DNA from: a virus
UHGV virus genome: UHGV-0294315
Length of the DNA: 19,472 nucleotides
Strand: one strand, 5' to 3'
Shown: positions 8,072 through 19,472 of the stretch, in pieces
How positions within the stretch are numbered: position 1 is the first letter of the stretch
How the letters are laid out: each line of letters opens with the position of its first letter
Program-made: the position numbers and the translations under genes
Notes under the pieces: model-generated
The model's database searches: none
The model's input: the letters and a program-made list of their open reading frames with translations, nothing else
Told to the model about the DNA's origin: nothing

Positions 8072-8166
8072 GCACTGTGTATTCATTCCAACGAGTGAAT
8101 ACACGGAGCAATGTCGCTCGTAACTAAACAGGAGCAGACTTGTTCTGATTATTGGAAATCTTCTTT

Positions 8167-8194
8167 GCCCTCCAGTGTGAGGGCAGTTTTTTTT
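8167..8194 (+). terminator. Intrinsic terminator upstream of the coiled-coil gene
   Basis: GCCCTC-CAGTGT-GAGGGC hairpin followed by AGTTTTTTTT. Confidence 0.55.
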
Positions 8195-8206
8195 GACGGA
8201 GGATAT

Positions 8207-9175
8207 ATGAGTGAAGTAACAGATTTAGTTGTTATTGAAAAAGCAAATGCAATGACTGTATTTCAGTCTGCCGACCAGATTGAAGAAATTCTCCAAAAGG
8301 TTGAACGTGAAGTTATGTCCTTTGTGCCTGATATCACAACGGCAAAGGGCAGAAAGGAGATCGCTTCTCTGGCGTATAAAGTTGCGCAGACGAAAACATA
8401 TCTCGATGGTCTTGGCAAAGACCTTGTTGCTGAACTGAAGGAAATTCCAAAGCTAATTGATGCCAACCGCAAGACAGTGCGTGATCGCCTTGATGAGCTG
8501 AAAGCCAAGGCACGCCAGCCTCTTACTGATTATGAGGAAGAACAGGCGCGGATTAAAGCCGAAGAAGAAGCTAAGGCAGCAGCTGAAGCTCTCGCAAAGC
8601 AAATTGAGTCTGACCATGAAATAGCGATTTTGATGGATCGCGAATTTGACCGCCAAAGAGAAGAGGCAAGACTCAAAGCGGAGCAGGAAAAGCGAGAGCA
8701 TGAAGAACGCTTAAAAAGAGAAGCTGAAGAGAAAGCCAGAGCTGAAGCCGAAGCAAAGGCAAAAGCCGAAATTGAAGCAGCAGCAAGACGAGAAGCAGAG
8801 GCTAAGGCCGCAGCGGAACGTGCAGAGCGTGAACGCATTGAAGCCGAGCAACGAGCACAGCGCGAAGCAAAAGAGGCAGCAGAACGAGCTGAAAGAGAAA
8901 AGCAGGCAGCAATTGAAGCAGAACGCAGAAAAGCACAGGAGGAGGCTGAACGAATCCGGCGCGAGGCTGAAGCAAAAGAGCAAGCCAGAATAGCAGAAGA
9001 AAAAAGAATCAAGGAAGAAGAAGAGCGTAGAGCAAAGGATAAAGCTCACCGGAAAGAAGTAAATAACAAAATACTTGCTGACCTTATCAAGGTTGGCGCA
9101 TCAGAAGATGTTGCTAAAAATATCATAACAGCCATCGTAAAAGGCGAAGTATTCGCAACAAAAATAACCTACTAA
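8207..9175 (+). CDS. Coiled-coil protein with a TolA-like Glu/Ala/Lys/Arg-rich central repeat region (322 aa)
   Basis: Start at the internal ATG 8207 (RBS GGAGGA); the track's 5' extension would include the terminator. Middle section is a long EAKAKAE / ERAERE-type low-complexity helix flanked by unique N- and C-terminal segments. Confidence 0.6.
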   Translation: MSEVTDLVVIEKANAMTVFQSADQIEEILQKVEREVMSFVPDITTAKGRKEIASLAYKVAQTKTYLDGLGKDLVAELKEIPKLIDANRKTVRDRLDELKAKARQPLTDYEEEQARIKAEEEAKAAAEALAKQIESDHEIAILMDREFDRQREEARLKAEQEKREHEERLKREAEEKARAEAEAKAKAEIEAAARREAEAKAAAERAERERIEAEQRAQREAKEAAERAEREKQAAIEAERRKAQEEAERIRREAEAKEQARIAEEKRIKEEEERRAKDKAHRKEVNNKILADLIKVGASEDVAKNIITAIVKGEVFATKITY

Positions 9176-14575: not shown

Positions 14576-14617
14576 GCCTGATTTGCAGGTTCGATTCCCT
14601 ATTCGGAGATAGCACTC

Positions 14618-14818
14618 ATGCAACACGAACTACAACCTGATTCACTGGTTGATTTGAAATTCATCATGGCTGATACTGGCTTCGGTAAGACCTTCATCTA
14701 TGACCGGATTAAGTCCGGCGACCTGCCAAAAGCCAAAGTTATCCACGGGCGAGCAAGATGGTTATATCGTGACCATTGTGAATTCAAAAATAAGCTCTTA
14801 AGCCGCGCCAATGGGTAA
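14618..14818 (+). CDS. xis: Excisionase / AlpA-family small DNA-binding protein
   Basis: 66 aa, LVDLKFIMADTGFGKTFIYDRIKSGDLPKAKVIHGRARWLYRDHCEFKNKL fits the AlpA/Xis winged-HTH pattern; located immediately upstream of the integrase. Confidence 0.65.
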   Translation: MQHELQPDSLVDLKFIMADTGFGKTFIYDRIKSGDLPKAKVIHGRARWLYRDHCEFKNKLLSRANG

Positions 14819-15090
14819 AATAGCGGGTAAAATATTTTTCACATCTAAAAAACACCATTCCAATCAATCCCCTGCCGCGCCAAGTAGATGTCTGCAGGGG
14901 ACACTTTAAAGACCTTTCTCTACATTTCACTTCATTACATAACCACTTAAAAAAACAGTAAGTTATCACCGAATCGGCCTGATTTTCATTTCAGTTAATT
15001 TCATGACATTACAACCTCGTGATGGTATAAGTGATGGTATTCCCCAGTTCGATATGCAGATACCATCAATCTACCAAAATGAGTACAGAT

Positions 15091-16365
15091 ATGGCCATTA
15101 ATGTGCTTTCCCCCAAACAGATAGAAAACGCCAAGCCGAAGACCAATGATTACAAACTTACCGATGGAGGGAGTTTGTATCTACTGGTACGAAAGACTGG
15201 TGGAAAATACTGGCGTATGAATTATCGTTTTGATGGAAAACAAGTGACATTGGCATTAGGGGTCTACCCAGATGTCTCACTTGCAACAGCGCGGAAACGG
15301 CGTGATGAAGCCAGGCAACTACTAGCCGATGGTCGTGATCCTCGCGAAGCAAAGAAACCCAAAAAGGAAGACCCAATTTCCCCCACGTTCGAGAGTGTTG
15401 CCAGAGAGTGGCATAGTAGAACGATAGGGCATCCTGAGTGGAAAGAGATCACCCGTAAAAAAATTCTCCGAGAAATGGAAAACCACCTCTTTCCTGCCAT
15501 CGGTTCAAAGCCTATCGATACGCTCAAAACCCGTGACTTGATGCCGATGCTGGTTGAGATGACTGAGAAAGGAATTGGTGCCACAACGAGCCGGGTAAAA
15601 ACCACTATGACGAGCATCTTCCGTTATGCCGTGCAACGTGGAATTGTCGATTACAACCCTGCCCACGATCTAAAAGGTGCAATTACGACCCCCAAAGTAC
15701 GACATCGCCCCGCACTACCTCTCGAACGTTTACCTGAACTGTTAGCGAAAACGAGAAGTTACACGGGAAGACCATTGACTCGCCTAGCAGTTCTATTTTC
15801 CCTGCACACTTTTGTGCGATCCAGCGAACTACGACATGCCAGATGGGAGGAGATCGACATTGAAAATGGGCTATGGACGATACCAGGACAACGTGAAGAG
15901 ATCGCAGGGGTTAAATTCTCAGAGCGGGGTGCAAAGATGGGGGCTGCTCATTATGTCCCGCTATCTAGTCAGGCTATCGGGGTACTGGAGGATATAAGGA
16001 AAATCAGTGGTGAATATCTGCTGGTTTTCCCCGGTGACAGCAACCCATATAAACCGATGAGCGAAAACACAGTTAATAAAGCACTGCGAACGATGGGTTA
16101 CGACACTCAAAGTGATGTTTGCTTGCATGGGTTCAGGGCGATGGCCTGCTCTGCACTGACCGAATCAGGACTCTGGTCACGCGATGCAGTTGAACGGCAG
16201 ATGAGTCACCAAGAAAGAAACGAAGTGCGGGCAGCATATGTGCATCTTGCGCAGCACATGCAGGAACGCCGCAGAATGATGCAATGGTGGTCTAATTATC
16301 TGGAACTAAATAAGGACGAATTTCATGCTCCTTATGACTTATCAGGTATTAACATTATCAATTAA
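15091..16365 (+). CDS. int: Tyrosine integrase, P4-type (DUF4102 arm-binding N-terminus plus phage integrase catalytic domain)
   Basis: MAINVLSPKQIENAKPKTNDYKLTDGGSLYLLVRKTGGKYWRMNYRFDGKQVTLALGVYPDVSLATARKRRDEARQLLADGRDP is a typical P4-family integrase N-terminus. Start could also be ATG 15079 or the track's GTG 15031. Confidence 0.85.
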   Translation: MAINVLSPKQIENAKPKTNDYKLTDGGSLYLLVRKTGGKYWRMNYRFDGKQVTLALGVYPDVSLATARKRRDEARQLLADGRDPREAKKPKKEDPISPTFESVAREWHSRTIGHPEWKEITRKKILREMENHLFPAIGSKPIDTLKTRDLMPMLVEMTEKGIGATTSRVKTTMTSIFRYAVQRGIVDYNPAHDLKGAITTPKVRHRPALPLERLPELLAKTRSYTGRPLTRLAVLFSLHTFVRSSELRHARWEEIDIENGLWTIPGQREEIAGVKFSERGAKMGAAHYVPLSSQAIGVLEDIRKISGEYLLVFPGDSNPYKPMSENTVNKALRTMGYDTQSDVCLHGFRAMACSALTESGLWSRDAVERQMSHQERNEVRAAYVHLAQHMQERRRMMQWWSNYLELNKDEFHAPYDLSGINIIN

Positions 16366-16395
16366 ATTTTCTTATAATTTAAAACAGAGGTCATA

Positions 16396-17277
16396 ATGCA
16401 GCATTCAAAAGAGAATGAAACTATATTCTTAGGAAATCTATGGATTGACAAAAAAATACCACCATTAGAATATTGTTCATTTGAACGCGCTTCAAGACTA
16501 TTAGAATGCGAGATTGATGATTTATTACACCTATACGAAATAGGCGCTTTTAATATCGCATTCAAGGCGGATGGACTTGCAGTTAGATTTAATGTTAATT
16601 TCCTCTATAAAAATCAGAAAATGGAAATTGACTTAATTCATCCCGTATTAACTAATCAATCACTAGAGATGGAATTTTCAACAATATGGTATGACCTTAA
16701 AGATGACTCCTTTGAACATTTTGAAAATGGGCTTCAAATTATAGGATTTGCCTGTGGTATTTGGTACGCCGATGATATGATAAGTGACATAAAAAATGGA
16801 TTAGCTATAGATCCAGATTATGAATTCAGGCTTAAACCGGTAAAAATACGAGATAATGTTTTGATGGCAACGGCCTCATATGAAGGAAATAAGGTCATTG
16901 ATATTCCATTTGAAGATCTTCTTATCATGCGAAGAGATTTAGAGTTAATATGGAAATCAGTAAAAACTGGAATTCCTATGCCAAGTTTACTTACGAAAAG
17001 AATTTCATCTGAACCTAAAATCCCCAAGCGATTAAATAACACTGCTGAGCATCATGCAAAAAATAGGGGGGGGTTATTAAATGCAGCCATATATATATTA
17101 GCAAAATACCCAAGCGAATGTCGTGGTGAAAGAAAAGAGATAAGTCCTGAAAAGTGGACTAACGCCATAATTAAACATTTAGGAGAGCTACCTCCAATAT
17201 TTATCACTAATGAACAAGAAATCTTAAGAAAATTACGATTAGCGGTTAATCATGCGGGATTAAAACAAAAGGGGTAG
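16396..17277 (+). CDS. Hypothetical 293-aa protein, AT-rich standalone gene between int and alpA
   Basis: Own consensus -10 TATAAT (16373-16378) and RBS AGAGG; long intact ORF in strongly AT-rich DNA. No domain recognised. Confidence 0.6.
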   Translation: MQHSKENETIFLGNLWIDKKIPPLEYCSFERASRLLECEIDDLLHLYEIGAFNIAFKADGLAVRFNVNFLYKNQKMEIDLIHPVLTNQSLEMEFSTIWYDLKDDSFEHFENGLQIIGFACGIWYADDMISDIKNGLAIDPDYEFRLKPVKIRDNVLMATASYEGNKVIDIPFEDLLIMRRDLELIWKSVKTGIPMPSLLTKRISSEPKIPKRLNNTAEHHAKNRGGLLNAAIYILAKYPSECRGERKEISPEKWTNAIIKHLGELPPIFITNEQEILRKLRLAVNHAGLKQKG

Positions 17278-17379
17278 ACTGAAACAATCTACAGGTAGAG
17301 TTGATTACACTACCTTCACAGCATTTTGATATCCCCATAGTATCTGCCGTGTTCATTACATAACACGGCAGGTAATTTC

Positions 17380-17595
17380 ATGACATTAAAAACTTATCCT
17401 ATCACTGGACATGCCCGCCCACGAGCTACTGCTGACTTTTTGCAAATAAGTACGGTTACTCTCTGGCGCTGGGAAAAGAACAATCCTGAATTTCCCAAAT
17501 CTATACGCATTTCAAAACGGGTATCTGTTTACGATGCACAAGAAATTAGGCAGTGGGTTAAAGCTCAATCAGCAGGATTGGAGGAAGTAGTGTAA
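17380..17595 (+). CDS. alpA: AlpA / HTH_17-family transcriptional regulator (P4 Vis-like)
   Basis: 71 aa, ATADFLQISTVTLWRWEKNNPEFPKSIRISKRVSVYDAQEIRQWVK matches the AlpA/excisionase HTH pattern. Confidence 0.65.
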   Translation: MTLKTYPITGHARPRATADFLQISTVTLWRWEKNNPEFPKSIRISKRVSVYDAQEIRQWVKAQSAGLEEVV

Positions 17596-17644
17596 TGACA
17601 ATATTAACAAAGCTGGGGAGAAAAAAGCCTCCCCAACGTATTAA

Positions 17645-17839
17645 TCAATTCTTTGGTTCTAAACCTCGGCTTTGTAACTCTTTGCGTAGAATGCGCTTGA
17701 TCCAAGCCGCTAGCGATTCATCGCCATCCTGCTGTTGTGCTTGTTCCATCAGTTCACGCAGTTCAGGGTCAAGTCGGAACTGGAATGGCGGATTCCCACG
17801 TCTTTCATTTTTGTGTGTTGACACGTCAATTACACCCAT
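17645..17839 (-). CDS. Ribbon-helix-helix (Arc/CopG/MetJ-like) DNA-binding protein
   Basis: 64 aa; NPPFQFRLDPELRELMEQ resembles an RHH beta-strand/helix-A signature. Its promoter region carries repeated TGTAATG half-sites. Confidence 0.5.
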   Translation of the reverse strand: MGVIDVSTHKNERRGNPPFQFRLDPELRELMEQAQQQDGDESLAAWIKRILRKELQSRGLEPKN

Positions 17840-17873
17840 TGTAATGTATTTATGTGTAATGACACATTACACA
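17826..17873. promoter_or_regulatory. Operator-like array of TGTAATG / CATTACA half-sites at the RHH gene start
   Basis: Perfect palindrome GTGTAATG-ACA-CATTACAC (17854-17872) plus further copies TTGTAATG (17839-17846) and AATTACAC (17829-17836). Confidence 0.45.
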
Positions 17874-17955
17874 CAGAAAAACAAAATAGCAACGCCCCGG
17901 AGTGTTTGCAGCACCACCGAGGCGTCTGACCAGCACGTTATATGAGGTAACGAAG

Positions 17956-18132
17956 ATGGCTAAACAGAAGTGTACCTGGTTATTTGCGGCGATCAACCGC
18001 AGTCAACGTAATGCCCGTCCGGTAATGTTAAGGATCACCGCAGATAACGAGCGATCAGCGCGGCGCAGACTTGCCCCGGACTATGTACTGAGCTTTGCCG
18101 GGCGCATTCCCTGCGGAGGTGAACATGCGTAA
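17956..18132 (+). CDS. Icd-like host cell-division inhibitor (P4-family), 58 aa
   Basis: RBS TGAGGT; MAKQKCTWLFAAINRSQRNARPVMLRITADNERSARRRLAPDYVLSFAGRIPCGGEHA resembles Icd-like proteins of P4-type elements (W-FAA...ER-ARR-LA-DY-L-FAGRIP pattern, from memory). Confidence 0.5.
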   Translation: MAKQKCTWLFAAINRSQRNARPVMLRITADNERSARRRLAPDYVLSFAGRIPCGGEHA

Positions 18133-18484
18133 TTATCCGCATCCCGGCGAACGCTGGCAGCATGAACGTGGCTGGACGGTCACGATTATCCGATTAATAG
18201 AAGCCTCGCCCTCTGTGGCGCTGGTTAATCCTGAATTCAGCTGTGAAGTGCTGATACGTCATGACAGCGACAACCAGCTTTCTTCCTGCCCTCTGGCATG
18301 GTTTGAACAGCGATATACGCGCCTGTTTGATGTACCGCTCTTTAAGCCTGCACCAGCTCCTGCAGGCGGTAGTGGTTCCGGCCCGCTGACACTGCATCCG
18401 TCTGTGCTATTTATCCGCTGGCGGGAGCGTAGCATATGGTGTTCTGCTGAGCCTGATGACGGTCACTATTCAAAGTTTCTCTGA
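18125..18484 (+). CDS. Hypothetical protein (119 aa)
   Basis: Start at internal ATG 18125, overlapping the Icd-like stop. Confidence 0.45.
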   Translation: MRNYPHPGERWQHERGWTVTIIRLIEASPSVALVNPEFSCEVLIRHDSDNQLSSCPLAWFEQRYTRLFDVPLFKPAPAPAGGSGSGPLTLHPSVLFIRWRERSIWCSAEPDDGHYSKFL

Positions 18485-18515
18485 CAAAACACCGCTGAAA
18501 ACGGAGTAATCCACA

Positions 18516-18800
18516 ATGAATATTTCAAACGGGCACAACGGTGCTCAGGGCCAGACTTTGCCTGAAAAACACAATACCGGTGCTTTTGCCTATGGGTTGT
18601 CAGAGGACGGTTTCGGAAAGCTGACCCGCGCAAGAAATGCCTGCGACATGCTCCAGCTTCTCTTTTCTGAATACCCGTCTCAGGCCGGAGCACTGGACGC
18701 AGGCTTTGCGCCTGGTGTCGCCGCGCTGATGGAGTACCTGCGGGCAGATTTGACGGATATTGCACACAGCTGCGCACTGATTGAAGGAGGTGCCAGATGA
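18516..18800 (+). CDS. Hypothetical protein (94 aa)
   Basis: RBS GGAG upstream of ATG; intact ORF. Confidence 0.5.
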   Translation: MNISNGHNGAQGQTLPEKHNTGAFAYGLSEDGFGKLTRARNACDMLQLLFSEYPSQAGALDAGFAPGVAALMEYLRADLTDIAHSCALIEGGAR

Positions 18801-19180
18801 ACCAGCCGCAGGTTTCCATTTTCCCGGCAGAAATGACCACCGCGCTTTACCGGTGGGCTATTGCTTCAGCATGGCGGCAGAAAATGCTGAACGAAACTGG
18901 CAATGATCAGTATGGTCCGCACAGCCTGACGGTGGAGCGTATTGAAATGGCCATTGCGCTGCATATCGAGTGCGCACTGATTAACGAGTACGGCGAAGCA
19001 CAGGGCGCCGCTGCCGCGCTGGCACTGCTGACTGACATGCTGGAGCCGTCACTGCTGACCGCGCCGCCGGTACTGACCGCGCGCGGTTGTGAAGTAATGG
19101 CGGAGATGTACCGCACGCTTCCGGCGGCCTTTGATGTCTGCTGCAGTACCGGTGTGACGTTGTATCAGGGGGAAGTATGA
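18797..19180 (+). CDS. Hypothetical protein (127 aa)
   Basis: ATGA-coupled to the genes on both sides. Confidence 0.5.
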   Translation: MNQPQVSIFPAEMTTALYRWAIASAWRQKMLNETGNDQYGPHSLTVERIEMAIALHIECALINEYGEAQGAAAALALLTDMLEPSLLTAPPVLTARGCEVMAEMYRTLPAAFDVCCSTGVTLYQGEV

Positions 19181-19472
19181 CAATACAGACGGTTACGCAG
19201 ATTTCAGCCGCCGCGCGGGGGAAATGGCCCGTTATTCTGCAGATGCTGCGTATTGATGTACCTGAAAACGGCAGGCACGGTCCCTGCCCGAAATGTGGGG
19301 GCAAGGATCGTTTTCGCCTTGATGACCTTGACGGGCGCGGGACGTGGATCTGCAGCCAGTGTGGCAATGGTGACGGTCTGGATCTGGTTAAGCTCGTAAC
19401 CGGTTACAGCGTCAGAAAGGCTGCGCAGGAGGTGGCGCAGATGCTTAATGTGCCGGATGTGCAGGAACTGCC
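19177..19472 (+). CDS. P4 alpha-type primase, N-terminal zinc-binding domain (gene runs off the right edge)
   Basis: Open to the window end; GPCPKCGGKDRFRLDDLDGRGTWICSQCGNGDGLDLV is the primase zinc-ribbon pattern CPxCGG...CxxCG. Confidence 0.6.
   Translation, partial: MTIQTVTQISAAARGKWPVILQMLRIDVPENGRHGPCPKCGGKDRFRLDDLDGRGTWICSQCGNGDGLDLVKLVTGYSVRKAAQEVAQMLNVPDVQEL

Follow-up and report, generated by a model that had tools for sequence, protein, structure and literature searches.

The virus genome UHGV-0294315, a stretch of 19,472 nucleotides that was analyzed at its full length and is called the window here, carries genes of a P22-like prophage and genes of a P4-like satellite side by side. 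Do these genes form one mobile element or two, and which of the two owns the integrase gene that lies between them? A preliminary description, made from the sequence alone, allowed for two stacked elements or for a hybrid sharing one integrase, and it called that integrase the prophage's. We consider it probable that positions 14892-19472 (4581 bp) are the left 4.6 kb of an 11.4-kb P4-related satellite at the 3' end of argW, which abuts a P22-like (HK620/Sf6-type) prophage, an independent element with the same 13-bp core, at the xis/att end of the latter. A working model of the regulation and helper use of the satellite forms part of this reading.

Junction between the two elements

Homology to the phages HK620 and Sf6 stops at 14904, inside the annotated attP core of these phages. 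The core (14892-14904, plus strand, CTGCAGGGGACAC, 13 bp) is that of HK620 attP, and the 3' end of the tRNA-Arg(CCU) gene argW has the identical sequence. The block from the core to the end of the window (14892-19472) was found with 100% identity over 4581 bp in Escherichia coli strain 44, and also in many other genomes, E. coli AR_0019 among them. AR_0019 has argW joined directly to the identical right arm of the satellite, with no prophage between them. The core at 14892-14904 is a hybrid junction, with the left arm from the phage (prophage attR) and the right arm from the satellite (satellite attL).

The gene order in HK620 is xis (hkaC/TorI), attP core, int, so that the int gene of the prophage moves to the far prophage end on integration. 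In the comparable tandem of strain 44, the order is yfdC, argW, intS, P22-type structural genes, torI, core, satellite, core with a 1-nt deletion, and csc genes; the IntS-type integrase of the P22-like prophage lies at the opposite prophage end, beside argW. Three att cores occur in strain 44, one each at argW, the middle junction, and the right end, together with intS and the satellite int, and the middle core is the one seen in the window. This is tandem integration at one att site with a separate integrase for each element, which bears out the suggestion of two stacked elements. In the source of the window, the core copy at the right end is expected to follow a cargo gene and to read TTCGATTCCTGCAGGG(G)ACACCA.

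The integrase gene at 15091-16365 (plus strand, 424 aa) encodes Arm-DNA-bind_3, Phage_int_M, and Phage_integrase domains (PF00589, PF13356, PF22022) and supplies the tyrosine-integrase marker of P4-like elements. Its product is 52% identical to P4 Int by BLASTP and only 30% identical to HK620 IntS, and the gene accompanies the satellite in genomes whose argW site is free of a prophage. On these sequence relationships, we assign the gene to the satellite as its own P4-family tyrosine integrase; the earlier label of a prophage integrase has to be given up. For annotation, the result corrects the ownership of the integrase and fixes the exact prophage/satellite boundary at 14892-14904.

The state of the tRNA gene end was also recorded. 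At the satellite attL, argW ends in ...GGGGACAC|TTT and lacks an encoded CCA; its annotated length in satellite-only loci is 72 nt. With the HK620-type prophage arm in place, the gene again ends in ...ACACCA and measures 75 nt, so that the prophage repairs the end of the tRNA gene in the tandem (sites: window 14892-14907, locus L001 13941-14012, and locus L005 20225-20299). A previous report found that, in its set, tRNA gene fragments were damaged only by phage-inducible chromosomal islands (PICIs), not by prophages (PMC10111431).

Satellite genes beyond the window, as read from related genomes

The window stops within the primase gene, and the remainder of the satellite was read from proxies, that is, elements 100% identical over the window part (4581 bp; for example, that of strain 44). 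Beyond the window, strain 44 carries an 890-aa primase-helicase, a 247-aa Sid-like protein, Psu, a 90-aa Ogr/Delta zinc finger, a 398-aa cargo protein, and the second att copy, which has the 1-nt deletion at the right end of the satellite. The reference for comparison was P4 (NC_001609), and the P4-like family was taken as described by Moura de Sousa and Rocha (PMC8628076; PMC10085698). The Sid-like protein (247 aa) is 24% identical to P4 Sid (E = 1.35e-11) and has a Psu-fold C-terminus. Psu of the proxy element matches PF07455 (E = 9e-44) and is 30% identical to P4 Psu, and Delta matches Ogr_Delta (PF04606, E = 6.6e-16) and is 45% identical to P4 Delta. Without the IS100 insertion sequence (IS) of AR_0019, the satellite measures ~11.4 kb, compared with 11.6 kb for P4. 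The preliminary description had proposed extending the sequence rightward in search of sid, psu, delta, and an att repeat; sid-like, psu, and ogr/delta genes and the repeat were all found in genomes carrying the identical element, in support of its assignment to the P4/CP4-like satellites.

Two further features were noted in this region of locus L003. Beside the right att, the cargo gene (30068-31264, 398 aa) has a low GC content and matches PADLOC DzbB (Dazbog) with E = 2.1e-9; no DzbA partner lies nearby, and the position is equivalent to the P4 defense hotspot. It is a possible solitary or novel defense gene. Downstream of delta, at 29500-29560, GCATGA/GCGCATGAG motifs are repeated along with a GC-rich GGCAGGCGTGCGGGGCTGTGCGC, loosely resembling P2/186 cos, and this stretch is a possible packaging site of the satellite.

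Genes of the early region

The genes listed in the preliminary description (alpA, a divergent ribbon-helix-helix [RHH] gene, an Icd-like gene, three open reading frames [ORFs], and a primase zinc ribbon) were all confirmed by the ORF list of the window and by profile matches. The AlpA gene (17380-17595, plus strand, 71 aa) matches PF05930 (E = 1.6e-7; 31.6 bits, compared with a cutoff of 21) and PHROG 66/4745, and its product is an AlpA-family regulator/excisionase and likely the counterpart of P4 Vis. The Icd-like gene (17956-18132, plus strand, 58 aa) has a conserved start at ATG 17956 and matches NF033153 (E = 5.5e-24). Its product is 54% identical by BLASTP to the C-terminal part (kil part) of the old P4 'cI ORF', and on these two matches the gene is classed as an Icd-like cell-division inhibitor homologous to the P4 kil region.

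The three small ORFs that follow (18125-19180) each match a PHROG family with E-values of 1e-34 to 1e-76, so they are conserved genes rather than chance ORFs. All three had been called uncharacterized, which does not hold for every one of them. The DUF5375 gene (18797-19180, plus strand, 127 aa; PF17345, E = 2e-12) encodes a protein 38.5% identical by BLASTP to P4 orf106, which we take to be Cnr, and on this basis it is regarded as a Cnr homologue. P4 Cnr is a copy-number regulator that acts on the alpha protein. In 90% of P4-like elements, the family to which P4 cnr belongs is placed between epsilon and alpha (PMC8628076). The 119-aa ORF (18125-18484, plus strand; PHROG 30862, E = 2e-76), whose family occurs in Enterobacterales only, shows a weak resemblance to P4 orf151 (BLASTP E = 0.013; hhalign probability 46%, E = 2e-4 over 77 columns) and encodes a probable distant homologue of it. 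The earlier label still fits the 94-aa ORF (18516-18800, plus strand; PHROG 14861). Its 73 homologues are all from Enterobacterales, and the protein model (pLDDT 70) has a disordered N-terminus and a two-helix hairpin. The 94-aa ORF was considered as an epsilon analogue and rejected, with an hhalign probability of 3% to P4 epsilon; it has no detectable relation to orf151 either. Both of the unassigned ORF families gave hhalign probabilities of ≤3% against P4 epsilon.

The primase-helicase gene begins at 19177 and is open to the window end (19177-19472, plus strand), so that 98 of its 890 codons are seen, including the zinc ribbon (PF08273 Zn_Ribbon_Prim, E = 4.8e-18). The full protein in locus L003 (890 aa) contains Zn_Ribbon_Prim, Toprim_3, and DUF927. 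Over the N-terminal 316 aa it shares 37% identity with P4 alpha (E = 1.3e-47), and its C-terminal part gave matches to SaPI Rep-type helicases (8tch, E = 4.5e-15; 5dgk, E = 2.9e-13).

Between int and alpA lies a 293-aa gene (16396-17277, plus strand, 33% GC). Its product, a putative DNA-binding protein, has an N-terminal MerR/Xis-like winged helix and 189 distant relatives; the remainder of the fold had no match, and none of the relatives carries an annotation. Homologues of this ORF, or genes of similar size, recur directly after the integrase in related elements.

A candidate repressor with allele-linked operators

The Arc-like RHH gene (17645-17839, minus strand, 64 aa; PHROG 228, E = 8.9e-6) encodes a candidate immunity repressor. 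A search of its product against PDB sequences gave no significant match. The true start may be GTG 17824 rather than ATG 17839; the start of the homologue in L006 corresponds to 17824. A terminator scan placed a terminator hairpin at 17637-17612.

The divergent control region (17818-17873, no strand assigned) contains a predicted -35 hexamer for the rightward operon, TTGACA (17818-17823), and two operator-like copies. The first copy, O1 (~17824-17836), is a candidate site directly after the hexamer. The second, O2 (17853-17873), lies ~30 nt beyond O1 and is a perfect palindrome, TGTGTAATG-ACA-CATTACACA, with 9/9 complementary positions in its arms. We compared 11 loci and found the same layout in all of them: a TTGAC(A)-like hexamer, repeat 1, and repeat 2, at fixed positions. 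The sequence of the repeats changes with the repressor allele, and five types were found, one per repressor allele type: GTGTAATGACAC / CATTACAC (type 1), GGTAATTACC (type 2), GTGGGCCACACC (type 3), GTGCGATTCAC (type 4), and GGTACGTACC (type 5). Locus L009, which lacks a homologue of the RHH protein of the window, has another small CopG/Arc-like gene on the minus strand instead. Operator switching linked to the allele is, as a sequence pattern, the classic signature of an immunity repressor/operator cassette. We infer that the RHH protein would repress the rightward operon as well as its own promoter.

A stem-loop was observed in the 5' leader of the icd operon (17891-17929, plus strand), with a 9-bp and a 3-bp stem and a 7-nt loop, followed by a conserved YURACCA motif. 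RNAalifold on the related loci showed that the structure is kept in all 11, with compensatory changes in 10 of the 12 pairs; 88.6% of cells were paired, compared with 65% after shuffling and 22-40% after sliding, and the single-sequence z was -3.6. The leader hairpin matched no Rfam family. A tRNA-like RNase P minihelix formed by the hairpin and ACCA was considered and not adopted, as ACCA lies 3 nt beyond the stem. The tRNA and Rfam scans of the whole window at gathering thresholds found no tRNA and no RNA family, and the Rfam scan of 17250-19472 in E-value mode gave traJ_5 and RybB at chance level only, reflecting hairpins.

Distribution of the satellite

Counts in E. coli were taken among 5426 complete genomes. 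This satellite variant was present in 63 of them, and the exact tandem junction in 10, so that the satellite alone at argW is far commoner than the tandem. The prophages beside the satellite vary between genomes. The differing neighbors, along with a satellite that is mostly alone, suggest an order of events in which the satellite was resident first and various argW-targeting phages integrated next to it later. The block of primase, sid, psu, and delta was found in at least 316 of the genomes. No record of the phage database contains the satellite.

Using the 94-aa family as a query, we recovered ten loci in Shigella, Citrobacter, Enterobacter, Pseudocitrobacter, and Pantoea. Gene order between icd and the primase gene did not vary among the ten, and an upstream integrase was seen in eight. 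The sid-like and delta genes follow the primase in every locus whose contig reaches that far; psu was detectable in 2 of the 10, and sid and delta are swapped in one. Identity across the ten loci was 55-100% for the icd-to-primase proteins and 25-87% for the integrases. Members with close integrases occupy argW, and a different integrase is found at thrW. The satellite is a common E. coli element of a poorly described P4-related sub-lineage.

Working model and alternative explanations

The functions of AlpA/Vis, Cnr, Icd/kil, Delta, Sid, and Psu are known from P4, and the working model builds on them. Integration and excision of the satellite between the middle core and the right-hand core copy would be the task of the P4-family Int, which AlpA would assist as directionality factor or activator. 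In the quiescent state, the RHH repressor would occupy the two operator copies that bracket the rightward promoter, silencing icd, the orf151-like gene, the 94-aa ORF, the cnr-like gene, the primase-helicase gene, and probably sid-psu-delta. Derepression would follow a signal, most plausibly a P2-like helper. Replication of the excised circle by the primase-helicase would then be subject to Cnr-like control, with Icd halting cell division. Delta (Ogr-type) would activate the late genes of the helper, and the Sid-like protein and Psu would remodel helper capsids for the 11-kb genome. The P22-like prophage would most likely be a bystander sharing the att site; its probable point of entry was the end of argW restored at the satellite attL.

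Several points weigh against a P4-related satellite working in this way. The right two-thirds of the satellite and the far end of the prophage were taken from relatives, since the window stops within the primase gene. The RHH assignment is the weakest of the set, coming from one PHROG match (PHROG 228, E = 8.9e-6). Binding by the repressor, the location of the promoters, and transcription of sid-psu-delta together with the early operon are predictions. No ORF had a Pfam match to epsilon/Ash (PF10554) at E ≤ 0.01. As for helper use and packaging, a search of the proxy element for P2/P4 cos motifs found none.

The satellite was compared with the published seven-marker definition of P4-like elements (PMC8628076; SatelliteFinder). 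The AlpA-type regulator (PF05930) and the tyrosine integrase are among the markers present. The canonical order is int, psu, delta, sid, alpA, epsilon, alpha, and that of the satellite and the ten related loci is int, alpA, primase, sid, psu, delta. The Psu, Delta, and Sid markers are present in elements identical over the window part, in genes that lie outside the window, and PF03288, the alpha marker, was not found in the full primase-helicase. The satellite would be 'Type C var01' under this scheme, with 'epsilon' and 'alpha' scored absent. Type C has been treated as possibly decayed or long diverged (PMC8628076; PMC10085698).

A decayed CP4-type cryptic island that is immobile and no longer excised, replicated, or packaged would fit the lack of epsilon and of a recognizable cos, the Type C class with its two missing core markers, and the IS insertions in some copies (IS100 in AR_0019, IS1 in E41). 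We nevertheless regard such an island as unlikely here. The ORFs in the window are all intact, and the satellite has stayed close to 11.4 kb in size. The 'missing alpha' comes about as an artifact of marker PF03288, as the satellite has a full primase-helicase. Moreover, the icd-to-primase proteins are 88-100% identical across five genera, whereas integrases, repressors, and cargo are swapped as modules, and a conserved core combined with modular swapping points to recent horizontal spread. The number of E. coli genomes that hold the primase-sid-psu-delta block (at least 316) also argues against decay.

It is quite improbable that the element is a PICI-type satellite, or a P4/PICI chimera, that uses a non-P2-like helper such as, possibly, the adjacent P22-like prophage. 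The layout of int, alpA, and primase/Rep and the SaPI-Rep-like DUF927 helicase are PICI-like, a P4-like element has been scored as a Type C PICI (PMC10085698), and the satellite physically adjoins the P22-like prophage. However, the sid-like, psu, and ogr/delta genes form the hijacking set specific to P4, whose targets are P2-type capsids and late promoters, and no PICI packaging or capsid-morphogenesis genes occur among the annotated genes of the relatives. The tandem with a P22-like prophage exists in only 10 of the ~63 carriers, and other family members reside at thrW.

One hybrid element, a lambdoid prophage fused with satellite genes, would explain why the window has a single integrase gene placed between the phage and satellite genes, but it can be dismissed as most improbable, since the att core identical to the argW 3' end parts the two exactly where HK620 homology ends, the HK620-type xis-core-int order puts the phage int at the other end (where intS of strain 44 adjoins argW), and the satellite with the 15091-16365 integrase, 52% identical to P4 Int, occurs without any prophage and so does not share it.

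The neighboring prophage

To the left of ~14900, the window holds the early-left arm of a P22-like/lambdoid prophage, which encodes a DnaB-like helicase, an O-like initiator, a CI-type repressor, Erf, SSB, ea genes, and a TorI-type excisionase. The best phage matches of this part were HZ41, HF4s, CUS-3, and HK620. The highest coverage of the whole window by any complete E. coli genome was 54%, because the prophage is mosaic. The torI/xis gene (14618-14818, plus strand; PHROG 66 excisionase, E = 2.7e-8) is the last prophage gene before the att core, and it is 98% identical to HK620 hkaC/TorI.

Just left of torI, 16 nt at 14583-14598 (TTGCAGGTTCGATTCC) are identical to the T-arm segment of argW, whose position in the tRNA gene is directly 5' of the att core. 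The phage has TTGCAGGTTCGATTCC ~300 bp left of the core, with torI between them, where it overlaps the annotated Pint/cII-binding site of HK620. The xis gene seems to have split the tRNA-homologous part of attP.

The region 8111-9175, especially 8501-9000, shows an AT skew of +0.61 at 51% GC and lies within a 354-aa prophage ORF (PHROG 1376). A comparable ORF has a coiled-coil annotation in strain 44 and the label 'TolA' in RefSeq lists of other matching prophages. The 354-aa ORF probably encodes a highly charged A-rich repeat protein.

Comparison with known elements

The satellite shares with P4 a P4-family integrase at a tRNA 3' end, an AlpA/Vis-type regulator, an Icd/kil-like gene, and an orf151-like gene and Cnr (DUF5375) directly upstream of a zinc-ribbon/TOPRIM primase. 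The proxy element adds homologues of Sid, Psu, and Delta, a variable cargo gene beside att, and a size of ~11.4 kb. The immunity region is different. P4 has a C4-type CI RNA (RF01695, 74.9 bits), isrK, and c4-a1b1 targets upstream of kil, with bit scores of 44-75, whereas no C4/CI RNA, isrK, or c4-a1b1 was found in the window, the full proxy element, or six related loci, and none in the control region even at E ≤ 10. The divergent RHH gene and its operators occupy the place of the immunity RNA in the satellite. The helicase part is DUF927/SaPI-Rep-like in the satellite, unlike the PF03288 part of P4. The satellite genes sid-psu-delta are downstream of and co-directional with the primase gene, whereas those of P4 lie between int and the regulator/alpA on the opposite strand, and the satellite Delta is a single-domain protein of 90 aa, compared with 166 aa in P4.

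We put forward, tentatively and at somewhat less than even confidence, that the satellite belongs to a coherent, widespread, and undescribed sub-lineage. In this sub-lineage, the RNA immunity of P4 would be replaced by interchangeable RHH repressor/operator cassettes, the helicase domain would come from the PICI/SaPI Rep family, helper sensing would differ as epsilon is absent, and a covarying leader hairpin would take part in early-operon control; surveys would set it aside as degenerate 'Type C'. Satellite surveys that use the PF03288 and PF10554 markers would under-call the lineage despite its complete replication module and P4 capsid-hijack genes. As an immunity system, the swappable RHH/operator cassettes of this P4 relative would be simple and testable, although not a new principle.

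CP4-57-type elements of E. coli K-12 begin with an integrase (intA), a ~300-aa gene (yfjH), and alpA. The satellite starts with the same order of integrase, roughly 300-aa gene, and alpA, a likeness in gene order, but it continues with a complete replication and hijack module and has att repeats at both bounds. The HK620/Sf6/KplE1 (CPS-53) argW module resembles the prophage arm (torI and attP core), which is 98% identical to HK620, and the satellite uses the same 13-bp core; the module is a separate element, whose integrase lies outside the window and is 30% identical to that of the satellite. Gram-negative PICIs and SaPI have the order int, alpA, primase-helicase in common with the satellite, and its DUF927 region is homologous to SaPI Rep-type helicases. 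What distinguishes the satellite from these islands is that it carries not PICI packaging or capsid-size genes but the P4-specific Sid, Psu, and Delta.

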